This document shows positions 29,622 through 42,986 of a DNA stretch of 64,000 nucleotides, piece by piece. Numbering within the stretch: the stretch's first letter is position 1; every line of letters starts with the position of its first letter. The position numbers were made by a program, and so were the translations under genes. Under the pieces are notes generated by a model that worked only from the letters and a program-made list of their open reading frames with translations, did not search any database and had not been told where the DNA came from. Origin of the DNA: an uncultured bacterium (GTDB lineage Bacteria > Babelota > Babeliae > Babelales > JACPOV01); NCBI GenBank assembly GCA_963744715.1, contig CAVUUR010000009.1, positions 98,766 to 162,765 of the forward strand, given 5' to 3'.

Positions 29622-30091
29622 CGTGCTTCCTTTACTGTTTTTTGTATATTCATGTCACGTGGGTATACAATAATAGAACGCCATGGAACTTTCGTTAATG
29701 TTCCGGTTGTATTGGTGGTACTATTCCATATTTCAATACTGATATCTTCAATACCCAATAACGGTGCAAGCGGTGGTTGTGGTCTATAGGTTACCGAACC
29801 ATGTGATGAAATTATTGCAGAATAACAGATAGCTTTTGGCTGTGGCGGTGTTAATTTTTCCTTACCGGACGATGCTTTAGCAGAAGCTAATTCTTGTTGT
29901 ACTAAAAACTTATACGTATTTTCTGCAGCTGGATCAAGAATGGGTGAACACCATCTATTATGAATAATCAGAATAACATCATCTGGCGATTCATTGTACA
30001 CGGTAATTGCTTTTTCCATGCTAATGAATGCATTGAGTGCACACGCACAAAGGCTTAAATAGATAATAGTATATATTTTTATGTTTATCAT
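29618..30091 (-). CDS. Hypothetical secreted protein
   Basis: Signal peptide; 4-bp overlap with downstream gene. Confidence 0.7.
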   Translation of the reverse strand: MINIKIYTIIYLSLCACALNAFISMEKAITVYNESPDDVILIIHNRWCSPILDPAAENTYKFLVQQELASAKASSGKEKLTPPQPKAICYSAIISSHGSVTYRPQPPLAPLLGIEDISIEIWNSTTNTTGTLTKVPWRSIIVYPRDMNIQKTVKEAR

Positions 30092-30304
30092 AGGTTTCCT
30101 GCTATTTATTTTCTATAATAATATCAAATATGAAATAACAAAATCAATAAAAGAGCTATAATATCGTGTTTTTCTGTATAATTTATGTAAAATAGTTGAT
30201 TATAGAAGCGGTATAGATACACTACGAGTAGAGATACGTGAGTGGTAGTAACTTTTTCTAATACTTCAATTAAGAATATAAAGAATATAAAGGTAATTAT
30301 CGTG

Positions 30305-31708
30305 ATGGATCACATTTTTAGACAATATGATATTCGAGGTAAAATGGGTTCGGAGCTATTGCTCGAAGACATCCCTCGTATAGGCAAGGCAATTGCCTAT
30401 TATTTTTTACAAAAAAATCCGCACGGTAAAACTATTGCAATAGGTGCCGATGGTAGAATTGATTCTCCTCGTATTAAAGAACTGTTATGTAAAGCTTTGC
30501 AGGAATCCGGATTTAATGTGATATTTATTGGTGTTTGCGCAACCCCAGTACTCTATTTTTCCCTTTTTAATCTTCCGGTTGATGGCGGATTAATGATAAC
30601 GGCTTCTCATAATGGTAAAGAGTATAACGGTATAAAAATTTGTTTAGGCAAAGATTCAATATGGGGCGAGCAGATTCAGGATATTAAGGAGTTAGTGCAT
30701 CGTAATGCCCAGATAACCAATGCAAATAAAGGTTCATATTCTGAATATGCGTTAATTCCGGATTATATTGCATGGATGGCTCAGCACTTTACTCATTTAA
30801 AAAACATAGATCTTTCGATGGTGCTTGATTGTGGCAATGGAGCTGCCGGAACTATTATACCAGATTTAATTAAGGCTATGCAGTGGAAACATGTCAACGT
30901 ACTATATGCTGAGGTTGATGGAACATTTCCTCATCATGAACCCGATCCAACGTTTGAAAAAAATATGCGTGATGTCAAACGTATTGTACAAACTACTGAT
31001 GCAATACTGGGTATAGGGTTTGATGGTGATTGTGACCGCATGGCATGTATGACCAAGCAAGGAGAATTGGTACAAGGGGATAAACTATTAGCACTTTTTA
31101 GTAAAGAAATTTTACAGCACAATCCCGGTGCCACTATTGTTTTTGACGTTAAATGTTCATCCGGATTAATTGAATTACTAGAACAATGGGGAGCAACGGC
31201 GCACATGTCCCCTACGGGGCATTCCATTATTAAAAATCAGATGAAATTGCATCATGCATTACTAGCAGGAGAATTGAGTTGTCATTTCTTTTTCAATGAT
31301 CGTTATTTTGGTTATGATGATGGTGTTTATGCTGCGCTTAGATTAATTGAAATATTGGTACAAACAAAAGAATCATTAGATAGCCTGTTATCAATATTTC
31401 CGCGTAAAATAAATACTCCTGAAATTAAAATTGTATGTAAAGAAGAAGAAAAAAAACCTATTGTTGAGAATATAAAGAATGCTTTTTTACACAAAGCTGG
31501 TGCGTCGGTAAATAGCATCGATGGCGTGCGCGTCACGTTGCCGTACGGCTGGGGAATTTTGCGCGCATCAAATACGCAACCGGTTCTTTGTTTGCGATTT
31601 GAATCGGATTCTGTTGCCGGATTGCAGCACATTCAAGATGATTTTATTATGCTGTTAAAAGAATATTTTCCTGAGCAGTTTTTGCGTCAACAGGTTTATG
31701 ATCAATGA
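30305..31708 (+). CDS. Phosphomannomutase/phosphoglucomutase
   Basis: FRQYDIRG, ITASHN catalytic Ser, FDGDCDR, GELSCH, RASNTQP. Confidence 0.93.
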   Translation: MDHIFRQYDIRGKMGSELLLEDIPRIGKAIAYYFLQKNPHGKTIAIGADGRIDSPRIKELLCKALQESGFNVIFIGVCATPVLYFSLFNLPVDGGLMITASHNGKEYNGIKICLGKDSIWGEQIQDIKELVHRNAQITNANKGSYSEYALIPDYIAWMAQHFTHLKNIDLSMVLDCGNGAAGTIIPDLIKAMQWKHVNVLYAEVDGTFPHHEPDPTFEKNMRDVKRIVQTTDAILGIGFDGDCDRMACMTKQGELVQGDKLLALFSKEILQHNPGATIVFDVKCSSGLIELLEQWGATAHMSPTGHSIIKNQMKLHHALLAGELSCHFFFNDRYFGYDDGVYAALRLIEILVQTKESLDSLLSIFPRKINTPEIKIVCKEEEKKPIVENIKNAFLHKAGASVNSIDGVRVTLPYGWGILRASNTQPVLCLRFESDSVAGLQHIQDDFIMLLKEYFPEQFLRQQVYDQ

Positions 31709-32534
31709 GAGCAATTGGCTTACACCTTCGTATAACAACAACTATTCTTGATCTATTACAGTATGCTATCGATATGCACTTAGATACGTTTCAATGTTTT
31801 TTAATGAATCAAGCTACTAATAATTATATACATTTGACTTCAGGGCAAATAAGGCAATTTTTGGCACTACGAAATCGCTATTTTAAGGATCTTTTTGTGC
31901 ATGGATCTTATTGGATCAATTTGAGCAATAAAGATATGGAAGAAAATCAATATCTTTTGGCCAAAGAATTAACCATCGCAAAAAAATTAGGATTTACGCA
32001 TATGATTTTACATCCGGGTTCTGCCAATGGATGGGAAACGCACCAAGAAGGGGTTGATTGTGTTGTGCGCGTTTTAAATGCGGTGTTAAAACATGAAAAT
32101 GATATAACCATAGTATTGGAAAATACAGCACATGGCAGTAGAGCCATAGGCAGTGATTTGCATGATTTGTTTGCGATACAACAAAAAATAGATTATCCCG
32201 AGAAGATAGCATTTTGTATCGATACGGCGCATGCGTATGCCTTTGGTTATGCAATTGATCAAGAGCAGGGTCATGATGAGTTTATTTCATTAATAGAGCA
32301 CAGTATTGGTTTTGCATCGGTTGCACTAATTCACCTTAATGATACCAAAGAAGAGCGAGGCAGCAAACGAGATAAACATGATGACTTGGGCAAGGGAATA
32401 TTGGCATCGACGCATTAAAACGATTTATAAAACACAAACAATTAGATACTATTCCTATTATTATGGAATTACCAGTTATACCCCAATCAGAACAACATGC
32501 TGTCATTAACATGGTCAGAACGTGGCATAGTTAA
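31705..32534 (+). CDS. nfo: Endonuclease IV (frameshift near 32395)
   Basis: HGSYWINL, HPGS, LENTA, CIDTAH, HLND, RDKH; C-terminus IPIIMELP in another frame. Confidence 0.88.
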
Positions 32535-32550
32535 AAAAGGAGAATTTTTT

Positions 32551-33557
32551 ATGCGTATTGCAATTAATGGGTTTGGGCGGATAGGAAAAACATTTTTGCG
32601 TGTGTTGCTCAATGATAGTTCGGCATCGCGAGATATTGAGGTTGTTGCAATTAATTGTGGGCCAGGAAATATTGACACGTTAGCCTATTTTTTTACGTAT
32701 GATACCTTAATGGGAAAATATCCAGGAACAGTTTCGTTGCAAGATAATTATTTATGTATCGATACTAAAAAAATAGTTATTTTTGCCGAATCCGTTCCAA
32801 CCAGTACCATGTGGAAAGCATTAGATATTGATTGGGTCGTTGATTGTTCCGGTAAATTTACGCATAGGCAAGATGCGCAAAAACATATTGATGCGGGAGC
32901 AAAAGCAGTGTTAATTTCTGCTCCTGCGCATGATGAAGATGTTGCCATTGTTCCCGGTGTTAACGATGCGTTATTTAATCGCAATAAGCATAAGATTGTT
33001 TCATTAGGAAGTTGCACCACGAATGCGTTTATGCCTATGCTAAAAGTGTTATATGAATCATCCGGATTTTCAAGAAGGGTTCATGACCACCGTCCATGCA
33101 TACACCAATTCGCAAGTGTTGTTAGATTTGATGCCATGATAACGATCCAAGAAAATCACGCGCAGCTGCCTTAAATATAATTCCAACAGCGACAGGTGCA
33201 GCCAGTATGATACGTAAAATAATTCCCGCACTGGATGGCAAACTGCAAGCACGTGCGTTGCGTGTTCCGGTAGCAAAAGTATCGCTCGTTGATATTTCCT
33301 TTGAAGCGGATAAACCATTAACCGTTTCAGGGTTTAATGCTGTTTTTAAAAAAGCTGCTCAGAGTACGTTGAAAGGAATTTTAGCTTTTACCATGGATCC
33401 TCTTGTTTCTACTGATTTTAGCGGCAATCCACATTCTGTTATTGTTGATGGCACCATGACCAATGCTATTGGTACGATGGGACATGTATTTGGTTGGTAT
33501 GATAATGAATGGGGTTATAGTGAACGTCTCAAAGATTTTTTGCTTTCAGTGCGATAA
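32551..33557 (+). CDS. gap: Glyceraldehyde-3-phosphate dehydrogenase type I (frameshifted)
   Basis: INGFGRIG, SCTTN, RVP, WYDNEWGYS. Confidence 0.92.
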
Positions 33558-33598
33558 TAATGCTCTATTAGGTATATTAAAAAATTAAGGAATAGATA

Positions 33599-34045
33599 AT
33601 GGTTAAGATTGGTCAACAAGCACCAGATTTTAAGCTTAACGATGAGACAGGTATTGCGCGTAGTTTGTCTGAATTTAAGGGTAAAAAAATTGTTATTTAT
33701 TTTTATCCAAAAGATAATACGCCTGGTTGTACCAAAGAAGCTTGCGGGTTGCGTGATGCATATCAGATGTACAACAGTAATAATATTGTAATTCTTGGCA
33801 TAAATTACGATTCTCCTGAATCGCACAAACAGTTCAAAGAAGAGCACAAATTACCCTTTGTGTTACTGAGTGATTCCGATCGAGAAGTGGCGCGTTCTTA
33901 TGGCGCTTATCAAGGCATTATTAATATGCTTTTTCCTCAACGCATGACATTTTTAATTGACGAGCAAGGCAAGGTTATTCACATTTTTGAAAACGTCGAT
34001 ATTAGCACGCATGCACAAGATATTTTAAAGGCATTTGGCATATAA
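33599..34045 (+). CDS. bcp: Peroxiredoxin (BCP/PrxQ family)
   Basis: YFYPKDNTPGCTKEAC. Confidence 0.92.
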   Translation: MVKIGQQAPDFKLNDETGIARSLSEFKGKKIVIYFYPKDNTPGCTKEACGLRDAYQMYNSNNIVILGINYDSPESHKQFKEEHKLPFVLLSDSDREVARSYGAYQGIINMLFPQRMTFLIDEQGKVIHIFENVDISTHAQDILKAFGI

Positions 34046-34184
34046 AATTCGTAAAAAAAGTATCTTATCGAAATACTCCCCAGTTTTTAGGTGTTTAGAG
34101 AGCAAAAGTGGGGTATCTTGATTTTTTTACCATTTACTATAATATTAATAATAGAAATAAAAATATGAATTTATAAGGATTTAT

Positions 34185-35996
34185 ATGAATGCATTTAAAA
34201 AAATAGTAATTCTACTCAGTTGTATGGGTATAGGAAACACGAATCCCCTGTTTAAAGGGAGTTTCACCCCTAAAAAATCGCCTGGATTTAGCGCTGTTTC
34301 TGTTCCGGGTCAATACAGCTTGTTATCGCATAATAAGCATTCTTTAGCGTCTTTTCCCGTACAAAATAAGCAACAATCATTATTTGATACAGAAAAGATG
34401 AATAATGGGCAAAACTCATATCGTACGTATGCTGTCTATAACCAGCAGGCTAAAAAATTTAAGAGTAATTATACGTTCTTTAAAGGCGGAGCAGCCGTAA
34501 TTGCGGGTGCATTATTGGCCCTTTTATATGGTTCTGGGCAAGATGATGATGATAAAGAATCGGTACCAACAATACCAATAAAACCTGTAGAGCCAACGGA
34601 GCATAGAAGATTAGTTATTTTAATGGATTCAGATGGAACCATTACTAGATTATCTCACAATAGCTTTGAAGATTTTTTACAAGCTTCTTTTATTACGAAT
34701 GATACACCATTACTGATTCATGAAAATATATTAAATGCACAAGCAATAAAAAATATGAATACTGCCGCATGGGATATCTATAAAGTAGGAAAAGAATTTG
34801 TGCTGTTGATTCCACATGCGTATAAAAATCAGGTAGGTGATATAGGATTTCAGTTAGATAATGCCCAGAAGATTGTGAATATGTCAGAATATAAATACCA
34901 TCGCTCATATTTATCAGTTTTTTCCGACTTTTTAGTATTGGGAACAAAACACCGCCTAATGAATAAAGATCTTTCTACGCTGGTAAAGGAAAAAAAATGG
35001 GGTTCTGAATTGGTACCATGTTTAGAGCAATTATTTGAAAATGAAACCACTGCAAAAAAATATCGTTGGAATGTGGCTATTTTCGGACATGGTGGGATTG
35101 ATAAAACTGGTTACGTTGTAGGAATGCATGAGGATTATTTTAAGTCACTGTTAAATTTTTTAGATACTAACATTAATACTCATTCATTACTTTATGACGG
35201 TTGTTTTTCCGGAGGAACTCGTTTTGAAAAATTATTTGATAAGCCATATTCATATGCTGTTTTTTATACAGGCGGCATTGACGGCTTTGGATATGACCAT
35301 ACAGAATCTCTTAAAAAAGATTACAGGAGTGAAGGTTGGTTTGAAGAAATTGCAAAAACCGATGTGGTATCGAGTAATTTTTCAACACTGTCTTGTTTAG
35401 CATTGCTGCAGAGCTTTGGGGGGGGAAGTACTTTTGTCAGAGAACCGGACTCATTTCATTTTCATCCTATTCGGGTTAGCAAGTCTTATAAAAATGGGTA
35501 TTTAGCTACAGAATGTGACCATGCCGTATTAATATACGACCATGGTAATGGAATAGGACAGCAGGTAAAAACTCTTTTTATGGATAAGCCAATAGTTGAT
35601 GCATTGGTAAGGCCGCAATATGTTCAAGGAATATCTTCTGACGCACAATACACCATTAAACAACTCATGTTACCTATTCATGGGCCTTTGGAACCGCGTG
35701 ATATTGCAAAAAACTTATGCGAAATATTTTGTAACGATCAAAAGGGATATGAAAAGAGTATGCTCAACAAAGAATTTATCATTGAGAGTATTATTATACC
35801 AGCTTGGAATGAAAAAGAGTATACGCAAGAAATTACTAATGCCGTTGTAAAAGTGACTGCAACAGGCAGTAAGATTGAATGTGCTATGACCTTTAAAGAT
35901 AACAATAATAATACGTATGAAGCTTCAGGGTTCAGAAAACCAACAATAAAAGCTTATGAAGTTATTTTGCAAAAAATGAATCAGATTCCTTCTTAG
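34185..35996 (+). CDS. Hypothetical secreted protein with possible clan CD (caspase/clostripain-like) peptidase motif
   Basis: Signal-like N-terminus, TM segment near aa 100-116, VAIFGHGG and LLYDGCFSGG. Confidence 0.65.
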   Translation: MNAFKKIVILLSCMGIGNTNPLFKGSFTPKKSPGFSAVSVPGQYSLLSHNKHSLASFPVQNKQQSLFDTEKMNNGQNSYRTYAVYNQQAKKFKSNYTFFKGGAAVIAGALLALLYGSGQDDDDKESVPTIPIKPVEPTEHRRLVILMDSDGTITRLSHNSFEDFLQASFITNDTPLLIHENILNAQAIKNMNTAAWDIYKVGKEFVLLIPHAYKNQVGDIGFQLDNAQKIVNMSEYKYHRSYLSVFSDFLVLGTKHRLMNKDLSTLVKEKKWGSELVPCLEQLFENETTAKKYRWNVAIFGHGGIDKTGYVVGMHEDYFKSLLNFLDTNINTHSLLYDGCFSGGTRFEKLFDKPYSYAVFYTGGIDGFGYDHTESLKKDYRSEGWFEEIAKTDVVSSNFSTLSCLALLQSFGGGSTFVREPDSFHFHPIRVSKSYKNGYLATECDHAVLIYDHGNGIGQQVKTLFMDKPIVDALVRPQYVQGISSDAQYTIKQLMLPIHGPLEPRDIAKNLCEIFCNDQKGYEKSMLNKEFIIESIIIPAWNEKEYTQEITNAVVKVTATGSKIECAMTFKDNNNNTYEASGFRKPTIKAYEVILQKMNQIPS

Positions 35997-36044
35997 CCTA
36001 ATGATTGATTATTTTATAATTTTTTTAAATACAAAAATAATGCA

Positions 36045-36560
36045 TTATTGTTTTTCATGATTAAGAAGCCATTGTTTGCGCGTTAAGCCGCCAGCATAAC
36101 CTCCTAAATCACCATTTTTATTAATAACACGATGACAAGGGATAACAATAGCGCATTTATTGGTAGCATTAGCCTGCGCAACAGCCCTAAAAGCAGTTGG
36201 TTGCTGTATGTGATGTGCTACATCACTATATGATTGTGTTTGTCCGTACGGAATTGTTGTTAATGTTTTCCAGACCGATTGTTGAAATGATGATCCAGCA
36301 AAAGCTAAAGGTATCGTAAATGTTCGTAATTGCCCATCAAAATAGTGCTGCAATTCTTGTTTAATTAAAGAACTGAGTTTGCTTGGACCATCTTTTATTA
36401 CAAATTTTTGCTTATTTGTTACAAGAGATATTTTTTTATCTAGATTATTTTTATCTGCAAAATCTAAAAAGTAGAGCAGACGATCATCGGCAAGGGCTAT
36501 CATATCTCCGATTGGTGTTGTAATTGAAAATTTGCTGAGTGTAATAATAGTGTGTTTCAA
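36045..36560 (-). CDS. ogt: Methylated-DNA--protein-cysteine methyltransferase
   Basis: FQQSVW, IPYG, IPCHRVI active site, GGYAGG. Confidence 0.93.
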   Translation of the reverse strand: MKHTIITLSKFSITTPIGDMIALADDRLLYFLDFADKNNLDKKISLVTNKQKFVIKDGPSKLSSLIKQELQHYFDGQLRTFTIPLAFAGSSFQQSVWKTLTTIPYGQTQSYSDVAHHIQQPTAFRAVAQANATNKCAIVIPCHRVINKNGDLGGYAGGLTRKQWLLNHEKQ

Positions 36561-36752
36561 GTGAAAAATCTTTCATAATGATGAAAAAAGTACAATTATA
36601 AAAACAGGTAAAACTGTTTGCTATGAGCAGCGTATGACTATGGATTTATTTTAATCAAAAGAATAGTAGTTTTATGGTAAAAAGTAAAATTTGAACAATG
36701 TATTACTACACTAATCTTGCTATTAGTACTATTTTATGATACAAATAGATAT

Positions 36753-36884
36753 ATGAAGATTATAATAAATTGTCCTAACAATGCATGTTCGAACACCACA
36801 TTTTTTGGCCTTAATAGTGCCAAGAGCCATATCTGTGCCCATTCTTATTATTCTTACGTATATAGGGGGTCGCAGTATGCCTAA
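36753..36884 (+). CDS. Putative attenuator leader peptide, 43 aa, Tyr-rich C-terminus
   Basis: Hand-translated MKIIINCPNNACSNTTFFGLNSAKSHICAHSYYSYVYRGSQYA*; followed by antiterminator/terminator. Confidence 0.75.
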   Translation: MKIIINCPNNACSNTTFFGLNSAKSHICAHSYYSYVYRGSQYA

Positions 36885-36918
36885 ATAATAAATTTAAGAA
36901 AATTTAAGGCTTTTGCGG

Positions 36919-36947
36919 AACCCCGGTTTTTAAAACCGGGGTTTTTT
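36919..36947 (+). terminator. Intrinsic terminator of attenuator 1
   Basis: aaccccggtttt-t-aaaaccgggg-tttttt, 28 nt upstream of the ABC binding-protein ATG. Confidence 0.85.
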
Positions 36948-36975
36948 ATTTGGTAAACATTTAACAAGGAATTTC

Positions 36976-37938
36976 ATGAAAAAAATAATGTTGAGTATTG
37001 GTATTACGATCATATTTTTTGCAAGTTTCGTTATGGTTAAACGAAGTAAGCAACCAACGAAAACTGCTGCGTATGCCGTCGGTATCGTGCAAACGGCATC
37101 GCATCCGGCACTTGATGCTGTGCGTGAAGGATTTATTGAAGTATTACAACGTAAAATGGGTGACTCTATTGAGTTTGTGATTCAGAATGCACAAGGCTCA
37201 GTTGCTCAGGCTCATGCAATTGCTCAACAATTTCATAGCAACAAACAATATAATGGATTTTTTGCCATTGCCACACCCGCGGCTCAAGCTATGAGTGCGG
37301 TGCAAAAAGAAAAGCCACTTATTATTGCTGCAGTAACCGATCCGGATGCATTAGGCCTTATGCATCCAACTACTAATGTCTGCGGTGTCAATGATATGAT
37401 TGATGTTAGATCTGAGATAGAAATGCTTACGCAGTTACTACCGAATGTAAAAAAAGTTGGCCTTTTATATACCGCAGGAGAAGCAAATTCTATTGCGGTA
37501 ATAAAACAAATGCACCAGGAACTTGAAACGCGAGATTTAGCGTTTATTGATTTTGCAATAGGCAGTGAAGCGGATATTTCTGCCATGGTACATCTAGCTT
37601 GTCGAAAAACTGATGTTATTCTTGCCCCAACCGATAATATGGTTGCTTGCGCAATTGCAATAATTGCAACCATAGCAGGACACTATAAAAAACCTTTAAT
37701 CGTAAGTGATAATATGCTCGTTAAGTTTGGTGCGCTTGCAGCGCGTGGTGTTGATTATAAAGCTCATGGTAAACAAGCTGGAGAGGTGGCGTACAAGATT
37801 CTTGTTGAAGGAAAAAAGCCATGCGAGTTACCGATTGAACCAACAAAAAGTGAACAAATAGTGGTTAACCAAGCAACGTTAGCAGCACTCGGATTGACTA
37901 TTCCCCATGAATTGCAACCGTATGTTGTCTTAGTCTGA
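36976..37938 (+). CDS. ABC transporter substrate-binding protein (ABC_sub_bind/TrpX-like, aromatic amino acid)
   Basis: HPALDAVREGF, NAQG, IATPAAQ, AVTDP, PTDN; N-terminal anchor. Confidence 0.88.
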   Translation: MKKIMLSIGITIIFFASFVMVKRSKQPTKTAAYAVGIVQTASHPALDAVREGFIEVLQRKMGDSIEFVIQNAQGSVAQAHAIAQQFHSNKQYNGFFAIATPAAQAMSAVQKEKPLIIAAVTDPDALGLMHPTTNVCGVNDMIDVRSEIEMLTQLLPNVKKVGLLYTAGEANSIAVIKQMHQELETRDLAFIDFAIGSEADISAMVHLACRKTDVILAPTDNMVACAIAIIATIAGHYKKPLIVSDNMLVKFGALAARGVDYKAHGKQAGEVAYKILVEGKKPCELPIEPTKSEQIVVNQATLAALGLTIPHELQPYVVLV

Positions 37939-37997
37939 TAACGATAAAAAAATGATGAACTTGCTATTTGTATTATTGTATGTTACCATAAAAAAGC

Positions 37998-38141
37998 ATG
38001 AAGATAACGATGAATCGTTCTAACAACTTATTATCGAATACAGAAGTTCTTGGCCTAGATAGGGCCACAGGCAATCATTGTGTCGTTTCTCATACCAATT
38101 ATTATTTTTACTTTACACTATGGGGATCGCAGTATGCCTGA
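37998..38141 (+). CDS. Putative attenuator leader peptide, 47 aa, Tyr/Phe/Trp-rich C-terminus
   Basis: Hand-translated MKITMNRSNNLLSNTEVLGLDRATGNHCVVSHTNYYFYFTLWGSQYA*. Confidence 0.75.
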   Translation: MKITMNRSNNLLSNTEVLGLDRATGNHCVVSHTNYYFYFTLWGSQYA

Positions 38142-38175
38142 GGTATAAGTTTAAAAAATTTATAAGGCAGTTGTG

Positions 38176-38207
38176 AAAACCCCGGTTTTAAAAGCCGGGG
38201 TTTTTTT
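38176..38207 (+). terminator. Intrinsic terminator of attenuator 2
   Basis: aaaaccccggtttt-a-aaagccgggg-ttttttt. Confidence 0.85.
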
Positions 38208-38251
38208 ATTGCAAAAAGTTGAAAGTTTGATGTTCATGAAAGGAAAAATAC

Positions 38252-39226
38252 ATGAAAAAAATTAGAATACAAGAAAGCTTCGTGAAAAAAACGATATTGA
38301 TTATCATGGGGATTATCTGTTTGGTTACTATAATTCAAGGTATAAAAAAACCAGTAATAACTGCCGCTTATACCGTTGGTATAATGCAAACGGCATCGCA
38401 TCCGGCACTCGATGCGGTGCGTGAAGGATTTATTGAAACATTAAAAAATAAGATGGGCAATACTGTTGAATTTGTGATTCAGAATGCACAAGGTTCAGTT
38501 GCTCAGGCTCACGCAGTTGCCCAACAATTTCATGCCAACAAACAATATAATGGATTTTTTGCCATTGCTACGCCTGCTGCGCAAGCCATGAGTGCCATAG
38601 AAAAAGAAAAGCCAATTATTATTGCTGCAGTAACCGATCCAAGCATTTTAGGAGCACAGACTAATATTTGCGGTGTTCATGACATGATTGATATGCATAA
38701 AGAAATTGATATGGTTCATCAATTATTGCCTCATGCACAAACTATTGCATTATTGTATAACAATGGAGAAGCAAACTCTATTGCACAAATTCAAATTATT
38801 AAGAAAGAACTGAAAGAGCTCAACGTAGATTGTCTTGAGTTAGGAATTGTTCAAGAAAATGATATCGCAACCGTTGTTGCTATGGCTTGTCGAAAAGCTG
38901 ATGTGCTACTGTGTCCAACTGATAATATGCTAGCATCGGCTATGGATTTGGTAGCATCAATTGCACATGCCAATAAAAAACCACTCATTGCATGCCATAA
39001 TCAGGCAGTAAATCAAGGTGCGCTTGCAGCGCGTGGTGTTGATTATAAAGCTCATGGTAAACAAGCTGGAGAGGTGGCGTACAAGATTCTTGTTGAAGGA
39101 AAAAAGCCATGCGAGTTACCGATTGAACCGACAAAAAGTGAACAGATAGTGGTTAACCGAGCAACGTTGACAGCACTTGGTTTGACTATTCCTGATGCGT
39201 TGCAGCCATATATTGTTTTAGTTTGA
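38252..39226 (+). CDS. ABC transporter substrate-binding protein (paralog of 36976..37938)
   Basis: Same motifs; 113-bp identical block near 3' end. Confidence 0.88.
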   Translation: MKKIRIQESFVKKTILIIMGIICLVTIIQGIKKPVITAAYTVGIMQTASHPALDAVREGFIETLKNKMGNTVEFVIQNAQGSVAQAHAVAQQFHANKQYNGFFAIATPAAQAMSAIEKEKPIIIAAVTDPSILGAQTNICGVHDMIDMHKEIDMVHQLLPHAQTIALLYNNGEANSIAQIQIIKKELKELNVDCLELGIVQENDIATVVAMACRKADVLLCPTDNMLASAMDLVASIAHANKKPLIACHNQAVNQGALAARGVDYKAHGKQAGEVAYKILVEGKKPCELPIEPTKSEQIVVNRATLTALGLTIPDALQPYIVLV

Positions 39227-39238
39227 TAAGGATACATA

Positions 39239-40083
39239 ATGATTGAATTACTCAACATAGCACAAGGTATTATTGAGCGCGGTCTTATTTTTGGTGTTGT
39301 GGTGGCCGCAGTGTACGTAGCTTCACGCCTCGTTAAGTTTGATAATTTAGCCGTTGAGGGTGCATTCGGATTAGGTGGTGCACTAACGGCGCTGTTAATA
39401 AGTTACGGCGTAAATCCATGGATGGGCCTTATTGGTGCAGCATGCATTGGGGGAATATCAGGAATAATTACCGGATTACTTAATACTTCCTTAAAATTAA
39501 ACAATTTGATTAGCGGCATTGTAGTGAGCACCGGTGCATTTTCTGTAACATTGAAAATAGCTGGATCAAATATGTCATTATACGGCAACCAAACTATTTT
39601 TACGCTCATGCCATTGGCGCTAGCGCCGTATCAATCACTACTGTGCTTACGTTTGTTTGTTGCATACTTTTTTATTTCATTAATTGGTTGTTAACAACAG
39701 AAGTTGGTTTTTTATTGTATGCGGTTGGTGATAATCCGCAGATGCTTACCAATGTTGGTAAAAGTGTGCAGGGATATACGATGTTAGGATTAGCGATCTC
39801 CAATACCTTGGCAGCATTAAGCGGGGCATTGTTTGTGCAATATGCCGGTTATTTTTCAATTTGGGCAAGCGTTGGTGTTTTAATTATTGGCTTGGCCGGT
39901 ATGATACTAGCGCAAGCATTAAGTAATAATTTTGGCATTGCTCTTCTAGTTGGTTCAATTGCATACCAAGCAATTATAGCACTCACCTTTGAATTACAGC
40001 TTGACCAAGATTGGAACAAATTAATTACCGCATCACTTATTGTAATACTTATTATGCTTAAACAATGGTTGCCTAAAAAATAG
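39239..40083 (+). CDS. ABC transporter permease (frameshift near 39645)
   Basis: Multi-TM; LAVEGAFGLGGA, AVGDNP, ALSGALFVQY; split into ORFs 39239 and 39643. Confidence 0.87.
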
Positions 40084-40090
40084 GATTATT

Positions 40091-40846
40091 ATGTTACAAC
40101 TTAAAAATATTAATGTATGGTTTGATAATAATCATATCGTGCGCGATATTTCTTGCGATGTTCAGCCAGGTGATTTTATTGTTATTGTTGGTACCAATGG
40201 TGCTGGGAAAACGACCCTCTTTGATGCTATTGCAGGAAAAATAAAACCAAACAGTGGCGCTATTGTAGTTGATAATGTTGATATTACCGCATTGCATGAA
40301 CAACAACGTGCTCATATTATTACGCGTCTTTTTCAAAATACGAAATTAAATTCGGTGGGGTCATTAACGGTAGCGCAAAATCTTGCTATGGCGAACTACA
40401 GCCGGCGCCGTGCGCGTCTTGTCGACGGTATGCAGGTAATGCCTCAAGAGTTGGCAGAAAAAATAATAACCGAACTTGGTGGTGATGTATCACTATTAGA
40501 AAAACCAATGAATGCCTTGTCGGGAGGGCAACGACAACTGATTGCATTTGTGATGGCAACACAAGCAATACCGAAAATATTGTTGCTTGATGAGCCTACT
40601 GCGGCACTTGACCCACAAGCTTCAACAATATTACTGCATCATGCAACAAAATTTATTAAACAACATGCGATAACTACGTTGCTGATAACGCATGATCCAC
40701 ATATTGCTTTAAGCATTGGTAATAAAATTTGGGTTTTGGAACATGGTAGGATTACTAAGCAGTATGGTGAACAAGAAAAGAAACATTTGAATCCGGATCA
40801 GCTGATTGGCCAGATTGATTATGCAAAAATTTCTCAATATTATTAA
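40091..40846 (+). CDS. ABC transporter ATP-binding protein
   Basis: GTNGAGKT, LSGGQRQ, LLLDEPTAALDP, ITH. Confidence 0.93.
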   Translation: MLQLKNINVWFDNNHIVRDISCDVQPGDFIVIVGTNGAGKTTLFDAIAGKIKPNSGAIVVDNVDITALHEQQRAHIITRLFQNTKLNSVGSLTVAQNLAMANYSRRRARLVDGMQVMPQELAEKIITELGGDVSLLEKPMNALSGGQRQLIAFVMATQAIPKILLLDEPTAALDPQASTILLHHATKFIKQHAITTLLITHDPHIALSIGNKIWVLEHGRITKQYGEQEKKHLNPDQLIGQIDYAKISQYY

Positions 40847-40923
40847 AAAATAAACTAAGCATGTATTTCAGGTCCCAAATATTTCTTGGGCCCATGGAGC
40901 AAATGCATCGTTATTTTTTATAG

Positions 40924-41286
40924 TTAATGTGTTGTATGAAATAAATTGTAGCTGTATATTGTATCCGGCCATGAATCCTGCCAGGTATATCCTTCTAAAC
41001 ATGTCATAAGGCCGTCTTTTATAAATAAAACAAATCCATATCCATAAACGTCATTTATAGTGGCGTCAACATCACCATAACCATATTCAACTGGCTCAAT
41101 TATATGGAGAACATTATTGGGCACAATAAAATCAGTAAAAAACCCGACACCAGTAAAATCTCTGCATTCTATATGTACACGTTTATACTGCTCTCGTAAT
41201 ACATTATTAATTGAAGTATCATGTTCCATTATTTTGTGCATAACTGCTTGTTCAAATTTTTCAAACGGTATTATTTTTCTGATCAT
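40924..41286 (-). CDS. Small hypothetical protein, putative orphan immunity protein
   Basis: Last gene of array behind toxin; RDFTGVGFFTDF...GFVLFIKDG...LEGYT. Confidence 0.65.
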   Translation of the reverse strand: MIRKIIPFEKFEQAVMHKIMEHDTSINNVLREQYKRVHIECRDFTGVGFFTDFIVPNNVLHIIEPVEYGYGDVDATINDVYGYGFVLFIKDGLMTCLEGYTWQDSWPDTIYSYNLFHTTH

Positions 41287-41290
41287 TAAT

Positions 41291-41674
41291 CTAATCTCTC
41301 AGTTTTTTTCCAAAGGTATATGAACCTTCTTTAATTTTGGAAAATATATGTTGTTTTAGTTCTTGATCATCAATTCTATCAAAATCATTGGTAAACCAAC
41401 GTAATGAATCGGGCAAACCTAAATTTTCTTTATACAGCAAGAGAGCCAATGTTGCTTGAATTTTTTCTAGCATAGCAAAGTAATCATCGGCCAATTCAAG
41501 TTTTTCGCAATTTTTTATCATAGAAAAAATATACATAATTTCCTGACCTAGCAATGACGGATTATTAGATAGATCAATTCCTATATTTTCTAATTCTTTC
41601 AATTTTTTATCTAAATCTATTGATGAAATGAGCATATTACGCAAGTAATCCTTATCATTGTTTTTAATGTTCAA
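41291..41674 (-). CDS. Small hypothetical protein, putative orphan immunity protein
   Basis: 127 aa, tightly packed in array, no signal peptide. Confidence 0.55.
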   Translation of the reverse strand: MNIKNNDKDYLRNMLISSIDLDKKLKELENIGIDLSNNPSLLGQEIMYIFSMIKNCEKLELADDYFAMLEKIQATLALLLYKENLGLPDSLRWFTNDFDRIDDQELKQHIFSKIKEGSYTFGKKLRD

Positions 41675-41679
41675 CTAAA

Positions 41680-42069
41680 TCATAGTATTTTTTCTGATCC
41701 AAAAGTTTTTTTATGCCAATATCCTTTTGGTTTACCATAAAACCATTCTTTGTTATTTTGATTTAAGAAGATTGTCAATTGTTTCATTGATATTTTATAT
41801 CGATAAAATAATGCAATTAATTCTCGTAAATCATCATCTGGTATTATGTTGCTTTTAATATACAAATGTAATTCATCAGAAATTCCACGAAATTCAATTA
41901 TTGATGGTATTCTTTTGATCCATTCAAAAAATAAATCTTCATCAATGCTGGAATAATACCAAACTGATTTTCCTACTAAAGTAATGTGTTCATTATTTTT
42001 TGTATAAAATCTGAGAGGTGTACAGATGAGTGTTATTTGTTTATTGAATTTGTTGATAATCTTCTCCAT
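41680..42069 (-). CDS. Small hypothetical protein, putative orphan immunity protein
   Basis: DEDLFFEWIKRI...LRELIALFYRY...YWH; array position. Confidence 0.62.
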   Translation of the reverse strand: MEKIINKFNKQITLICTPLRFYTKNNEHITLVGKSVWYYSSIDEDLFFEWIKRIPSIIEFRGISDELHLYIKSNIIPDDDLRELIALFYRYKISMKQLTIFLNQNNKEWFYGKPKGYWHKKTFGSEKIL

Positions 42070-42514
42070 CAGTTTTAATACTTAATGAAGCAAAAAAATC
42101 ATACAAATCGATACTCCACTCATCAACAGGTTGGGTTGCTCTTGCCATAAGATATAAATAACATGTTTGAGCATTATAAGGAGGAAGTTTAGCTCGTTTT
42201 CTTTTAAATGTTTGACCCCCAAGAATATGAATTTGTACGTAGACCATATTACGAACCTTATATAATGCCCATAGACTCATACGTGGATTTGTTTCTAAAG
42301 TCGATATATCAGCAATCAGACAAGAAACATTATGAGTTTTAAGTCTATCAATGCCTTCTTTCCACTGTTGTTTGTATTCTTGAATTGTCCATGAGTCAAG
42401 AGACATAATAAATTTTTCCTTATAATCACCTATGGTAATTTGTCCCCACTCACACAATTCACCAGCAATCTTTTTTGGCTTTTTGCTAACAACTTCTATC
42501 TTGAATTTCTTCAT
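42041..42514 (-). CDS. CdiI(ECL)-like immunity protein, second copy
   Basis: Paralog of 42987..43484: GQITIGDYKEKF, WTIQEYKQQWKEG, WALYKV, EWSI. Confidence 0.75.
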   Translation of the reverse strand: MKKFKIEVVSKKPKKIAGELCEWGQITIGDYKEKFIMSLDSWTIQEYKQQWKEGIDRLKTHNVSCLIADISTLETNPRMSLWALYKVRNMVYVQIHILGGQTFKRKRAKLPPYNAQTCYLYLMARATQPVDEWSIDLYDFFASLSIKTDGEDYQQIQ

Positions 42515-42545
42515 GGTAACTTTCTATAAATTTCCTGTTGGTGCA

Positions 42546-42983
42546 TTATGATGTGCGTATTAATTGCACTTTAGGTTCGCATGTATCAATAATATCTACT
42601 ATCGAATCTGCTGCAACGATAGAAAAATGTATGAATGATAATGAATCGCTAATACCATATGATTCTTCTGATAACCATTGTACATATGATGAATTAGTTA
42701 CTTTAAAGAATGTCCAATCTCCATAAAATTTTGAGCCGTAGCGCTCATCAAGTATGTTTATAGTATTTAATCTAAAACTTTCATCAACACTTCGATAAGA
42801 ATCTACAGAACCTTCAAAGGTTATTAAAACCTTATTGTTTTCATTATTATAATCAGAGAGCCAGACTTTAAATCCATCAATAGCATCAACAATTGAATCA
42901 ACATAATACTTAGCGGCCAAACCTTGTACTGGTTCCCATTTTTCCCATTGTTCTAGCATCGTTATCATTTCTGTATTATTCAT
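42546..42983 (-). CDS. Small hypothetical protein, putative orphan immunity protein
   Basis: Acidic 145 aa, no signal peptide, located in array. Confidence 0.62.
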   Translation of the reverse strand: MNNTEMITMLEQWEKWEPVQGLAAKYYVDSIVDAIDGFKVWLSDYNNENNKVLITFEGSVDSYRSVDESFRLNTINILDERYGSKFYGDWTFFKVTNSSYVQWLSEESYGISDSLSFIHFSIVAADSIVDIIDTCEPKVQLIRTS

Positions 42984-42986
42984 TCC

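Follow-up and report, generated by a model that had tools for sequence, protein, structure and literature searches.

The stretch of DNA analysed here (the window: 64,000 nucleotides (nt), positions 98,766 to 162,765 of contig CAVUUR010000009.1, assembly GCA_963744715.1, from an uncultured bacterium of the GTDB lineage Babelota; Babeliae; Babelales) carries two tandem genes for the substrate-binding protein of an ATP-binding cassette (ABC) importer, each preceded by a short open reading frame (ORF) rich in aromatic codons and by an intrinsic terminator. Each of the two copies is very probably a ribosome-mediated leader-peptide transcription attenuator, which senses charged tRNA-Tyr and, probably, tRNA-Phe and controls an aromatic ABC importer. 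The analysis covers the anatomy of the locus and how far it is conserved, the covariation seen in antiterminator and terminator, and the protein family to which the regulated genes belong; from these we infer ribosome stalling, a leaderless start, readthrough and the identity of the limiting amino acid. The two units are built as follows.

36717..36745, + strand: candidate promoter 1, TTGCTA (36717-36722), N17, TACAAA (36740-36745), 7 nt to the ATG
36753..36884, + strand: leader ORF 1, 43 codons, ending SYYSYVYRGSQYA and stop, no Shine-Dalgarno (SD) sequence
36846-36863, + strand: Tyr control codons of leader 1 (Y32, Y33, Y35, Y37)
36917..36947, + strand: intrinsic terminator 1, 12-13-bp stem, 3-nt loop, U6
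36976..37938, + strand: binding protein 1 gene, 320 residues, PF04392
37961..37989, + strand: candidate promoter 2, TTGCTA (37961-37966), N17, TACCAT (37984-37989), 8 nt to the ATG
37998..38141, + strand: leader ORF 2, 47 codons, ending NYYFYFTLWGSQYA and stop, no SD
38100-38123, + strand: control codons of leader 2, read YYFYFTLW
38176..38207, + strand: intrinsic terminator 2, 12-14-bp stem, U7
38252..39226, + strand: binding protein 2 gene, 324 residues, PF04392

The two units, from promoter through terminator, are 81% identical over ~300 nt, and because the whole arrangement recurs in related genomes the feature is taken to be more than chance. Each terminator ends just before the start of the binding-protein gene, with 28 nt between them in copy 1 and 44 nt in copy 2, and therefore the gene must be read through the terminator. 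An earlier note on this DNA had proposed twin attenuators in front of duplicated binding proteins. The leaders and strong terminators that it described are present in the sequence, as are the promoters 7-8 nt 5' of leader ATGs that lack an SD; the pairing of the leader 3' end with AGGC..TTG(C/T)G..CCCC is borne out by folding and covariation; and the core of the proposal is supported in that relatives have kept the reading frame, the Tyr/Phe cluster and both the terminator and the antiterminator.

The alternative pairing involves the following segments.

36833..36840, + strand: possible region 1 of copy 1, CUGUGCCC, able to pair with region 2
36865..36882, + strand: region 2 of copy 1 (5' strand of the antiterminator), with a run of G's (G-run) at 36865-36869, the P1 strand CGCAG at 36871-36875 and the P2 strand GCCU at 36879-36882
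36907..36924, + strand: region 3 of copy 1 (3' strand of the antiterminator), with AGGC at 36907-36910, UUGCG at 36913-36917 and a run of C's (C-run) at 36921-36924
38122..38139, + strand: region 2 of copy 2, with G-run 38122-38125, UCGCAG 38127-38132 and GCCU 38136-38139
38165..38183, + strand: region 3 of copy 2, with AGGCA 38165-38169, UUGUGA 38171-38176 and C-run 38180-38183

The stop codon of leader 1 (36882-36884) overlaps the end of region 2, that of leader 2 is found at 38139-38141, and the C-run at 36921-36924 doubles as the base of the 5' arm of terminator 1. The predicted antiterminator hairpin, in which the G-run, TCGCAG and GCCT face AGGC, TTG(C/T)G and CCCC, is composed of the G-run:C-run helix, P1 (of the CGCAG:UUGCG type), P2 (of the GCCU:AGGC type) and a variable apical stem. 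It folds at -21.0 kcal/mol in copy 1 and -23.6 kcal/mol in copy 2 (z-scores -3.1 and -4.2, respectively), and a shuffled sequence folds as well in 2/200 cases for copy 1 and 0/200 for copy 2. When this segment is folded, the G-run:C-run hairpin, inner helices included, has the lowest energy in 20/20 leaders, and cognate strands pair at -17.5 kcal/mol vs -14.0 kcal/mol for non-cognate strands, with none of 10000 permutations as low.

Covariation supports the same structure. In an alignment of 13 sequences, 90.9% of the antiterminator cells pair and 9 of the 13 pairs have changed on both sides; none of 500 shuffles reaches the percentage paired, the covariation score or the number of both-side changes, while further pair types are reached by 22/500. 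Controls in which the strands were slid give at most 62.5% paired cells and at most two pairs changed on both sides. For the structure of the terminator state, which comprises P1, P2 and the stem of the terminator, 92% of the cells pair and 11/20 pairs have changed on both sides, as have 4 of the 11 pairs that make up the terminator stem. In one relative (L062) GGGG:CCCC is replaced by GAGG:CCUC and a U-G pair is retained in the terminator, as a three-way constraint on these bases predicts; another (L060) has A-U at the neighbouring pair. The pair counts were taken from a covariance-model alignment (A8); a MAFFT alignment (A7), which misaligned the 3' strand of P1, was excluded, as was from all structure analyses one locus (L068, from genome G044) with an aromatic ORF that lacks both G-run and terminator.

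The leader behaves as a translated ORF. Its frame contains no stop codon in any of 21 homologous leaders (27-58 codons), while the other two frames of the same spans hold 49 and 53 stops (~2.4 each per leader); since the leader frame was selected as an ORF, these two frames serve as the expectation. In the 16 codons that precede the G-run, 19 leaders together encode 122 aromatic residues in frame, vs 44 and 74 out of frame, and 3-13 aromatic codons are found within these last 16 codons in each of the 19 leaders that have a G-run. In 17-codon windows before the G-run of the same 19 leaders, Y occurs 79 times, F 42 times and W twice, and both TAT/TAC and TTT/TTC are used. Conservation of leader ORFs and aromatic codons in relatives, by which the earlier note had proposed to judge its reading, is thus what was found, with 21/21 frames open.

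These counts also bear on the suggestion that the element works as an RNA switch which binds a ligand or a protein, the ORF being incidental. Such a switch would fit the observation that P1, P2 and the apical hairpin form a conserved three-helix stem which persists in both states, and that a further hairpin folds within the ORF. However, an incidental ORF would not explain a frame open in 21/21 leaders when the other frames carry ~2.4 stops each, nor aromatic enrichment only in the leader frame, and neither the loop sequences nor the apical hairpins are conserved. At gathering score, Rfam gave no match, and no T-box, in window positions 30000-45000, and in 20 related loci it gave two tRNAs only; a T-box or riboswitch, which the earlier note had named as a finding that would speak against its proposal, was therefore not among the matches. 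The sub-threshold matches are driven by the terminator (L10_leader, 31.8 bits vs a cut-off of 44; rnk_pseudo, 27 vs 55). Dependentiae have few known regulators, and a 1.26-Mb genome with few regulators is a further argument against a dedicated switch, a reading to which we assign a very small probability. The hairpin within the ORF is located as follows.

36801-36826 and 38045-38068, + strand: hairpin inside the leader ORF (UUGGCC...GGCCAA), predicted fold

A similar hairpin folds in copy 2, G069, G056 and G062; it is conserved in several genera, where it encodes conserved GL.xA residues, and it may, from the modelled fold, be a polymerase pause site or a structural element.

The initiation region has a conserved layout. 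TTGCTA is exact in 12/21 leaders, and TTGNNN-N16-17-TANNNN ends 6-8 nt 5' of the ATG in 15/21. An SD-like 4-mer precedes only 3/21 leader ATGs (in one case inside the -10 hexamer) and neither of those in the window, vs 16/21 of the downstream genes; in the L072 and L073 lineages an SD precedes the leader instead. The promoter-to-ATG spacing and the missing SD suggest, in agreement with the earlier note, that the leader mRNA is probably leaderless, i.e., translated from an ATG at or near the start of the transcript. In a leaderless sensor the first transcribed codon would load the ribosome, and the coupling of translation to transcription would therefore be built in. In many leaders the 12-mer TTGCTATTTGTA (36717-36728, 37961-37972 and relatives) is conserved well beyond the needs of a -35 hexamer, and may represent a longer promoter element or a site bound by protein.

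In the proposed mechanism, transcription would start at or 1-2 bases from the leader ATG, and a ribosome would translate the 43- or 47-codon leader. When both Tyr and Phe are ample, the ribosome would reach the stop codon inside the 5' strand of the antiterminator, where it would mask the G-run and the P1 and P2 strands; the C-run would then be free, the 12-13-bp terminator would form and transcription would stop before the binding-protein gene. When Tyr (or Phe) is scarce, the ribosome would stall on the earliest aromatic codons, at least 16-22 nt before the G-run begins. The strand of G-run, P1 and P2 would then be free to pair with region 3 as this is made, which would tie up the four C's that form the terminator base, and the RNA polymerase would read on. 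The geometry of the leaders is compatible with these steps: the stop codon falls within the P2 strand, the G-run starts 14-18 nt 5' of it in 13/19 leaders, roughly as far as a ribosome footprint extends upstream, and the first aromatic codon lies 18-48 nt 5' of the G-run.

Several observations weigh against this reading or limit its reach. The last aromatic codon is found 1-13 nt 5' of the G-run, and a ribosome stalled there would therefore itself cover the G-run, so that only the 5'-most control codons could work as proposed. The antiterminator and the terminator compete for four C's only, while P1 and P2 coexist with the terminator, and the terminator state has a lower predicted energy than the forced antiterminator (-29.9 vs -24.2 kcal/mol in copy 1, -33.4 vs -26.7 kcal/mol in copy 2), i.e., it is favoured by 5.7 and 6.7 kcal/mol, respectively. 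With the terminator state the more stable, antitermination must be kinetic, and could be weak. A pairing of region 1 with region 2 is present in the minimum-energy folds of both untranslated leaders and of several relatives, but covariation is absent (cognate -10.66 vs non-cognate -10.46 kcal/mol, 3376/10000 permutations as low); because region 2 is conserved this test has little power, and an anti-antiterminator of regions 1 and 2, which belongs to the classical model, is not supported by covariation. The 13-sequence alignment used for the pair counts was fitted by the covariance model to P1, P2 and the terminator, although not to the G-run helix, and several of its rows are close kin. In the promoter search the best of several spacings was picked, and the spacing counts are consequently not selection-free. 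A consensus scan calls neither candidate promoter, in the case of promoter 1 because it has 8/12 consensus matches at a threshold of 9, and it lists terminator 1 and misses terminator 2. Finally, 19 further binding-protein loci of the order (20 genes were fetched, 19 of which were usable) include 8 with a clear aromatic leader, 3 doubtful cases and 8 with none.

The limited overlap of the two hairpins could also be taken to mean that the leader acts on translation or mRNA stability instead of termination, with stalled ribosomes protecting the mRNA or opening a ribosome-binding site, since an antiterminator which competes for 4 bp of the terminator only, and is less stable, may give leaky control. 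We consider this to be very improbable: the SD sequences of the binding-protein genes are found 15-35 nt beyond the U-tract and are unpaired in the predicted structures, and the canonical terminators, with G+C-rich stems and U6-7 tracts, are conserved and show covariation.

Another proposal in which termination at the hairpin has no regulatory role is that the small ORFs encode functional aromatic-rich small proteins, that the hairpin and U-tract simply end that gene, and that the binding proteins are expressed from elsewhere. The N-terminal residues of the leaders (MKI...N..S..GL.A.S.NC) are indeed partly conserved among several genera, and a leader peptide acting in trans, peTrpL, is described in the available text of PMC7298713. 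Yet the 28 or 44 nt between terminator and gene start leave no room for a promoter, and the ORF always ends inside the antiterminator strand. The C-terminal residues differ among leaders (GSQYA, GSRMSIG, GDRSMPT, GVSHV) while the RNA pairing is kept, and therefore a sensor ORF fits better than a functional peptide. Searches of the leader peptides against Pfam and NCBIfam returned no family, apart from one chance-level match (Transpos_assoc, E 0.019) below its cut-off. We hold it most doubtful that the peptides are the function of these ORFs, and retain transcription attenuation as the explanation.

The extent of the family was determined by covariance-model searches of 151 genomes of the order. 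A first model (R1), built from three copies, matched 77/151 genomes at E <= 0.01, where most matches were bare terminators: a true leader was found in 11 of the 30 loci returned, and 20 further hits that were fetched gave two with a leader and a third (L054) in which the leader is located upstream of the hit. One locus, L028, was listed as a candidate leader and then dropped. A second model, from 13 sequences, matched 7/151 genomes at E <= 1e-5 and added three genomes. Together with the loci fetched at binding-protein genes, the search of related genomes suggested by the earlier note places leaders in 24 or more other genomes of the order, which represent 8 of the 21 sampled families (f1, f4, f9, f11, f12, f15, f17 and f19). 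Five more named records carry a leader as well, and PF04392 itself occurs in 53/151 genomes. Nearly all of the leaders precede a PF04392 binding-protein gene, and their open frame and the Tyr/Phe cluster just 5' of the G-run are conserved. The closest named records with the binding protein are metagenome-assembled genomes (MAGs) labelled Candidatus Babeliales or Candidatus Dependentiae, on which ground the window is assigned to this order of the TM6 phylum (Dependentiae), and in the named collection a leader is found at 12 of 14 Dependentiae-type binding-protein loci (L068 is doubtful and L069 has none). In genome G108, examined at an earlier locus, a leader is present.

A number of loci depart from the usual plan. 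In L017 (G005) a leader at 1412-1528 has Phe-only codons (FFTPFF) and precedes a 221-residue protein of no known family; G005 gave no PF04392 match at E <= 1e-20. In L149 (G137) two successive aromatic short ORFs, at 1047-1151 (..LFYFYFSEKVGAC) and 1235-1321 (..YFFAYFYFYYSAGGCY), precede one binding-protein gene, and may form a pair of serial attenuators that no gene separates. PF04392 genes often occur in tandem within the order (G114, G138, G069, G115, G137, G108). Several of these pairs are separated by ~110-135 nt, which is too short for a second leader, and the second attenuator, as seen in the window and in G025, is therefore not universal.

Aromatic short ORFs were also observed before PF04392 genes in other phyla. 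In two Chlamydiae MAGs (L070, ..FFIPQYFYFF..; L071, ..FFATQFFYSF..) a G-run close to the stop codon lies opposite a CCCCGG hairpin, the layout seen also in Babeliales, and a Silvanigrella MAG (L076) carries a short ORF of this kind (..FYASYFAYRFYF). In Streptococcus (L088, L127, L130) an SD-led short ORF ending TYFYSYF(R) is located ~185-230 nt 5' of the PF04392 gene; its Tyr/Phe codons pair with a downstream GCUGUAG, and several hairpins and then a terminator follow. The Streptococcus leaders have no Rfam match, and from its sequence this element looks like an independent Tyr/Phe leader-peptide attenuator.

The regulated proteins point to aromatic amino acids as the imported substrates. Binding proteins 1 and 2 are 66% identical and match Pfam PF04392 (ABC_sub_bind) at E 1.9e-62 and 2e-59, respectively, and they match the structures 6hni, 3lkv and 3lft at E 5e-48 to 8e-34 over ~280 residues. 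According to the available portion of PMC6816091, CD0873 (6HNI) binds Tyr, VC_1101 (3LKV) Phe and SP1069 (3LFT) Trp; the Tyr specificity of CD0873 is there assigned to Glu-263, which is Ala in VC_1101 and SP1069, and exclusion of Trp to a Tyr in place of a Gln of SP1069. The position of Ala262-Glu263 of CD0873 is occupied by Ser244-Asp245 in binding protein 1 and by Cys248-His249 in binding protein 2, and both have Tyr at the Trp-excluding position; Ser-Asp is found in most Dependentiae orthologues. The pocket residues were mapped by our own alignments, which agree with the statements in that portion of PMC6816091 for all three structures.

The earlier note had assigned Tyr to copy 1 and Tyr, Phe and Trp to copy 2. 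The Tyr assignment and, probably, that of Phe are in line with the Tyr/Phe codon clusters, and that of Trp is not supported: the sole TGG of leader 2 (38121-38123) overlaps the G-run (38122-38125) and is not conserved, with W in 2/19 control windows, and Trp sensing was rejected for these reasons. A ribosome paused at this TGG would cover the antiterminator strand, and both receptors carry the Trp-excluding Tyr. The further suggestion that control codons diverged together with the receptors holds for the 2/2 tandem pairs analysed (the window and G025), where Asp in the first receptor goes with a Tyr-only leader, and His or Ala in the second with a Phe-containing one. In G025, receptor 1 has Asp and the leader SYSYCSY, while receptor 2 has Ala and the Phe-rich leader IYTFAFIYF. 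Single-copy receptors of the Asp type usually have mixed Tyr/Phe leaders, so that the match of codon and pocket is confined to these two pairs, and a joint divergence of receptors and codons has, from the sequences, limited support.

In the source genome (1.26 Mb, 12 contigs, 86% complete) no match to chorismate synthase or prephenate dehydratase was found, while control families were matched in 14/14 cases; this result is consistent with dependence on imported aromatic amino acids. Tyr, Phe and Trp are each served by a single tRNA gene in this genome. A class IV (branched-chain type) aminotransferase gene is found 5' of the binding-protein gene under the same leader in L010 (G006), L011/L066 (G069), L060 and L061, which hints that the enzyme at these loci acts on aromatic amino or keto acids; none was found in the source genome. 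In the G006 homologue, the one clear homologue that a DNA search gave, the same promoter is followed by a leader ending SSYYYYTYRGSRMSIG, the terminator, the class IV aminotransferase and then the binding protein. The two binding-protein genes of the window are identical at 119 of 120 nt over alignment columns 781-900 (37756-37875 in gene 1) and at ~60-65% in the middle, a pattern which suggests recent gene conversion of the 3' part while the pocket-bearing part was kept divergent.

The remaining components of the importer follow binding protein 2.

39239..40083, + strand: importer permease, PF02653, in two overlapping frames (39239-39694 and 39643-40083)
40091..40846, + strand: importer ATPase, PF00005

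Unit 1 would drive binding protein 1, and unit 2 binding protein 2 together with the permease and the ATPase. The sole terminator seen 3' of binding-protein gene 1 is that of attenuator 2, and transcripts from promoter 1 would therefore end there; terminator 2 thus probably, judged from its position, also ends the promoter-1 transcripts that run through binding-protein gene 1. In such transcripts leader 2 would be internal and without an SD, and the permease and ATPase would be reached only via attenuator 2. The permease frame switches near 39660-39690, in a T-rich stretch, and the switch reflects an error of assembly or else a true frameshift in the only permease of the importer. Pfam gave nothing for a 603-residue ORF or for three ORFs of 120-129 residues that flank the operon (34185-35996, + strand; 40924-42069, - strand). 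A third, more distant PF04392 paralog (348 residues) is found elsewhere in the genome (G000 contig C6:151053-151913, - strand, locus L139), directly after another gene and with no leader upstream of it.

The general design is that of well-known attenuators. As set out in the accessible parts of PMC11802643 and PMC3082878, E. coli trpL-trpEDCBA, pheL-pheA and pheM-pheST share a short ORF with a cluster of the sensed codon, a terminator, and a competing hairpin that takes in sequence from the ORF end as well as from the terminator, and the same logic of a stalled vs a terminating ribosome would apply to the Babeliales leaders. Unlike the E. coli systems, however, the Babeliales leaders would sense Tyr together with Phe, match no Rfam leader family, would control uptake instead of biosynthesis or a tRNA synthetase, lack an SD and are probably leaderless. 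In addition, their antiterminator shares only 4 nt with the terminator, a 1:2 hairpin is not supported by covariation, and they belong to the phylum Dependentiae. The nearest aromatic case with mixed codons is the aroR leader before aroF of Corynebacterium glutamicum, which likewise has a mixed Phe-Tyr-Phe cluster and ribosome stalling in the account given in the accessible part of PMC11802643. On the same account aroR controls DAHP synthase, not a transporter, and responds to limitation of Phe but not of Tyr, whereas Tyr is dominant here (79 Y vs 42 F); aroR has no sequence relation to the Babeliales leaders.

Regulatory ORFs translated from leaderless mRNA that report the supply of a single amino acid are described also in mycobacteria, as leaderless polycysteine short ORFs (bioRxiv 10.1101/834739, available text). 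These differ in amino acid and phylum, and a pair of intrinsic terminator and antiterminator is evident in Babeliales. Streptococcus suis TrpXYZ is a paralogous importer of the PF04392 type, for an aromatic amino acid, that likewise undergoes premature termination in its 5' leader, but there the sensor is uncharged tRNA bound to a T-box, in the part of PMC9382623 that was available, while in Babeliales it would be a translated ORF and no T-box was found. Searches of open-access papers and bioRxiv turned up no account of a Tyr leader, none of attenuators in Dependentiae and none that links PF04392/COG2984 to a leader peptide. Judged from sequence, the element represents a novel family of RNA and leader: the amino acid presumably sensed is new too, the cargo is a transporter, the start is probably leaderless and the unit is duplicated in tandem in the window, while the proposed mechanism is itself that of trpL, pheL and pheM.

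A broader idea, which we put forward tentatively and regard as possible but not probable, is that the PF04392 system has spread through very different bacteria (Dependentiae, Chlamydiae MAGs, Silvanigrella, Streptococcus) and is commonly controlled by a Tyr/Phe leader sensor that travels with it, leaderless in Babeliales, and that duplicated receptors each have a codon mix that matches their pocket. If true, these leaders would constitute a large undescribed class of attenuators for amino-acid uptake, not synthesis, and the cell could tune one pump separately for tyrosine and phenylalanine.

The attenuators of the window would add a version that controls Tyr/Phe uptake to the trp, phe, his, leu, thr and ilv leaders. 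The conserved RNA family could be added to Rfam, and would mend annotation before PF04392 importers, where such leaders now appear as hypothetical small proteins or blank sequence. The conserved promoter-to-ATG spacing would offer a natural case of leaderless initiation coupled to attenuation, and the tandem pairs are suited to asking if the control codons follow the specificity of the receptor. Dependentiae have genomes of ~1 Mb and are either uncultured or dependent on amoebae; the finding indicates that such reduced genomes would keep a ribosome-based sensor that rations the import of amino acids which are apparently not made by the cell.

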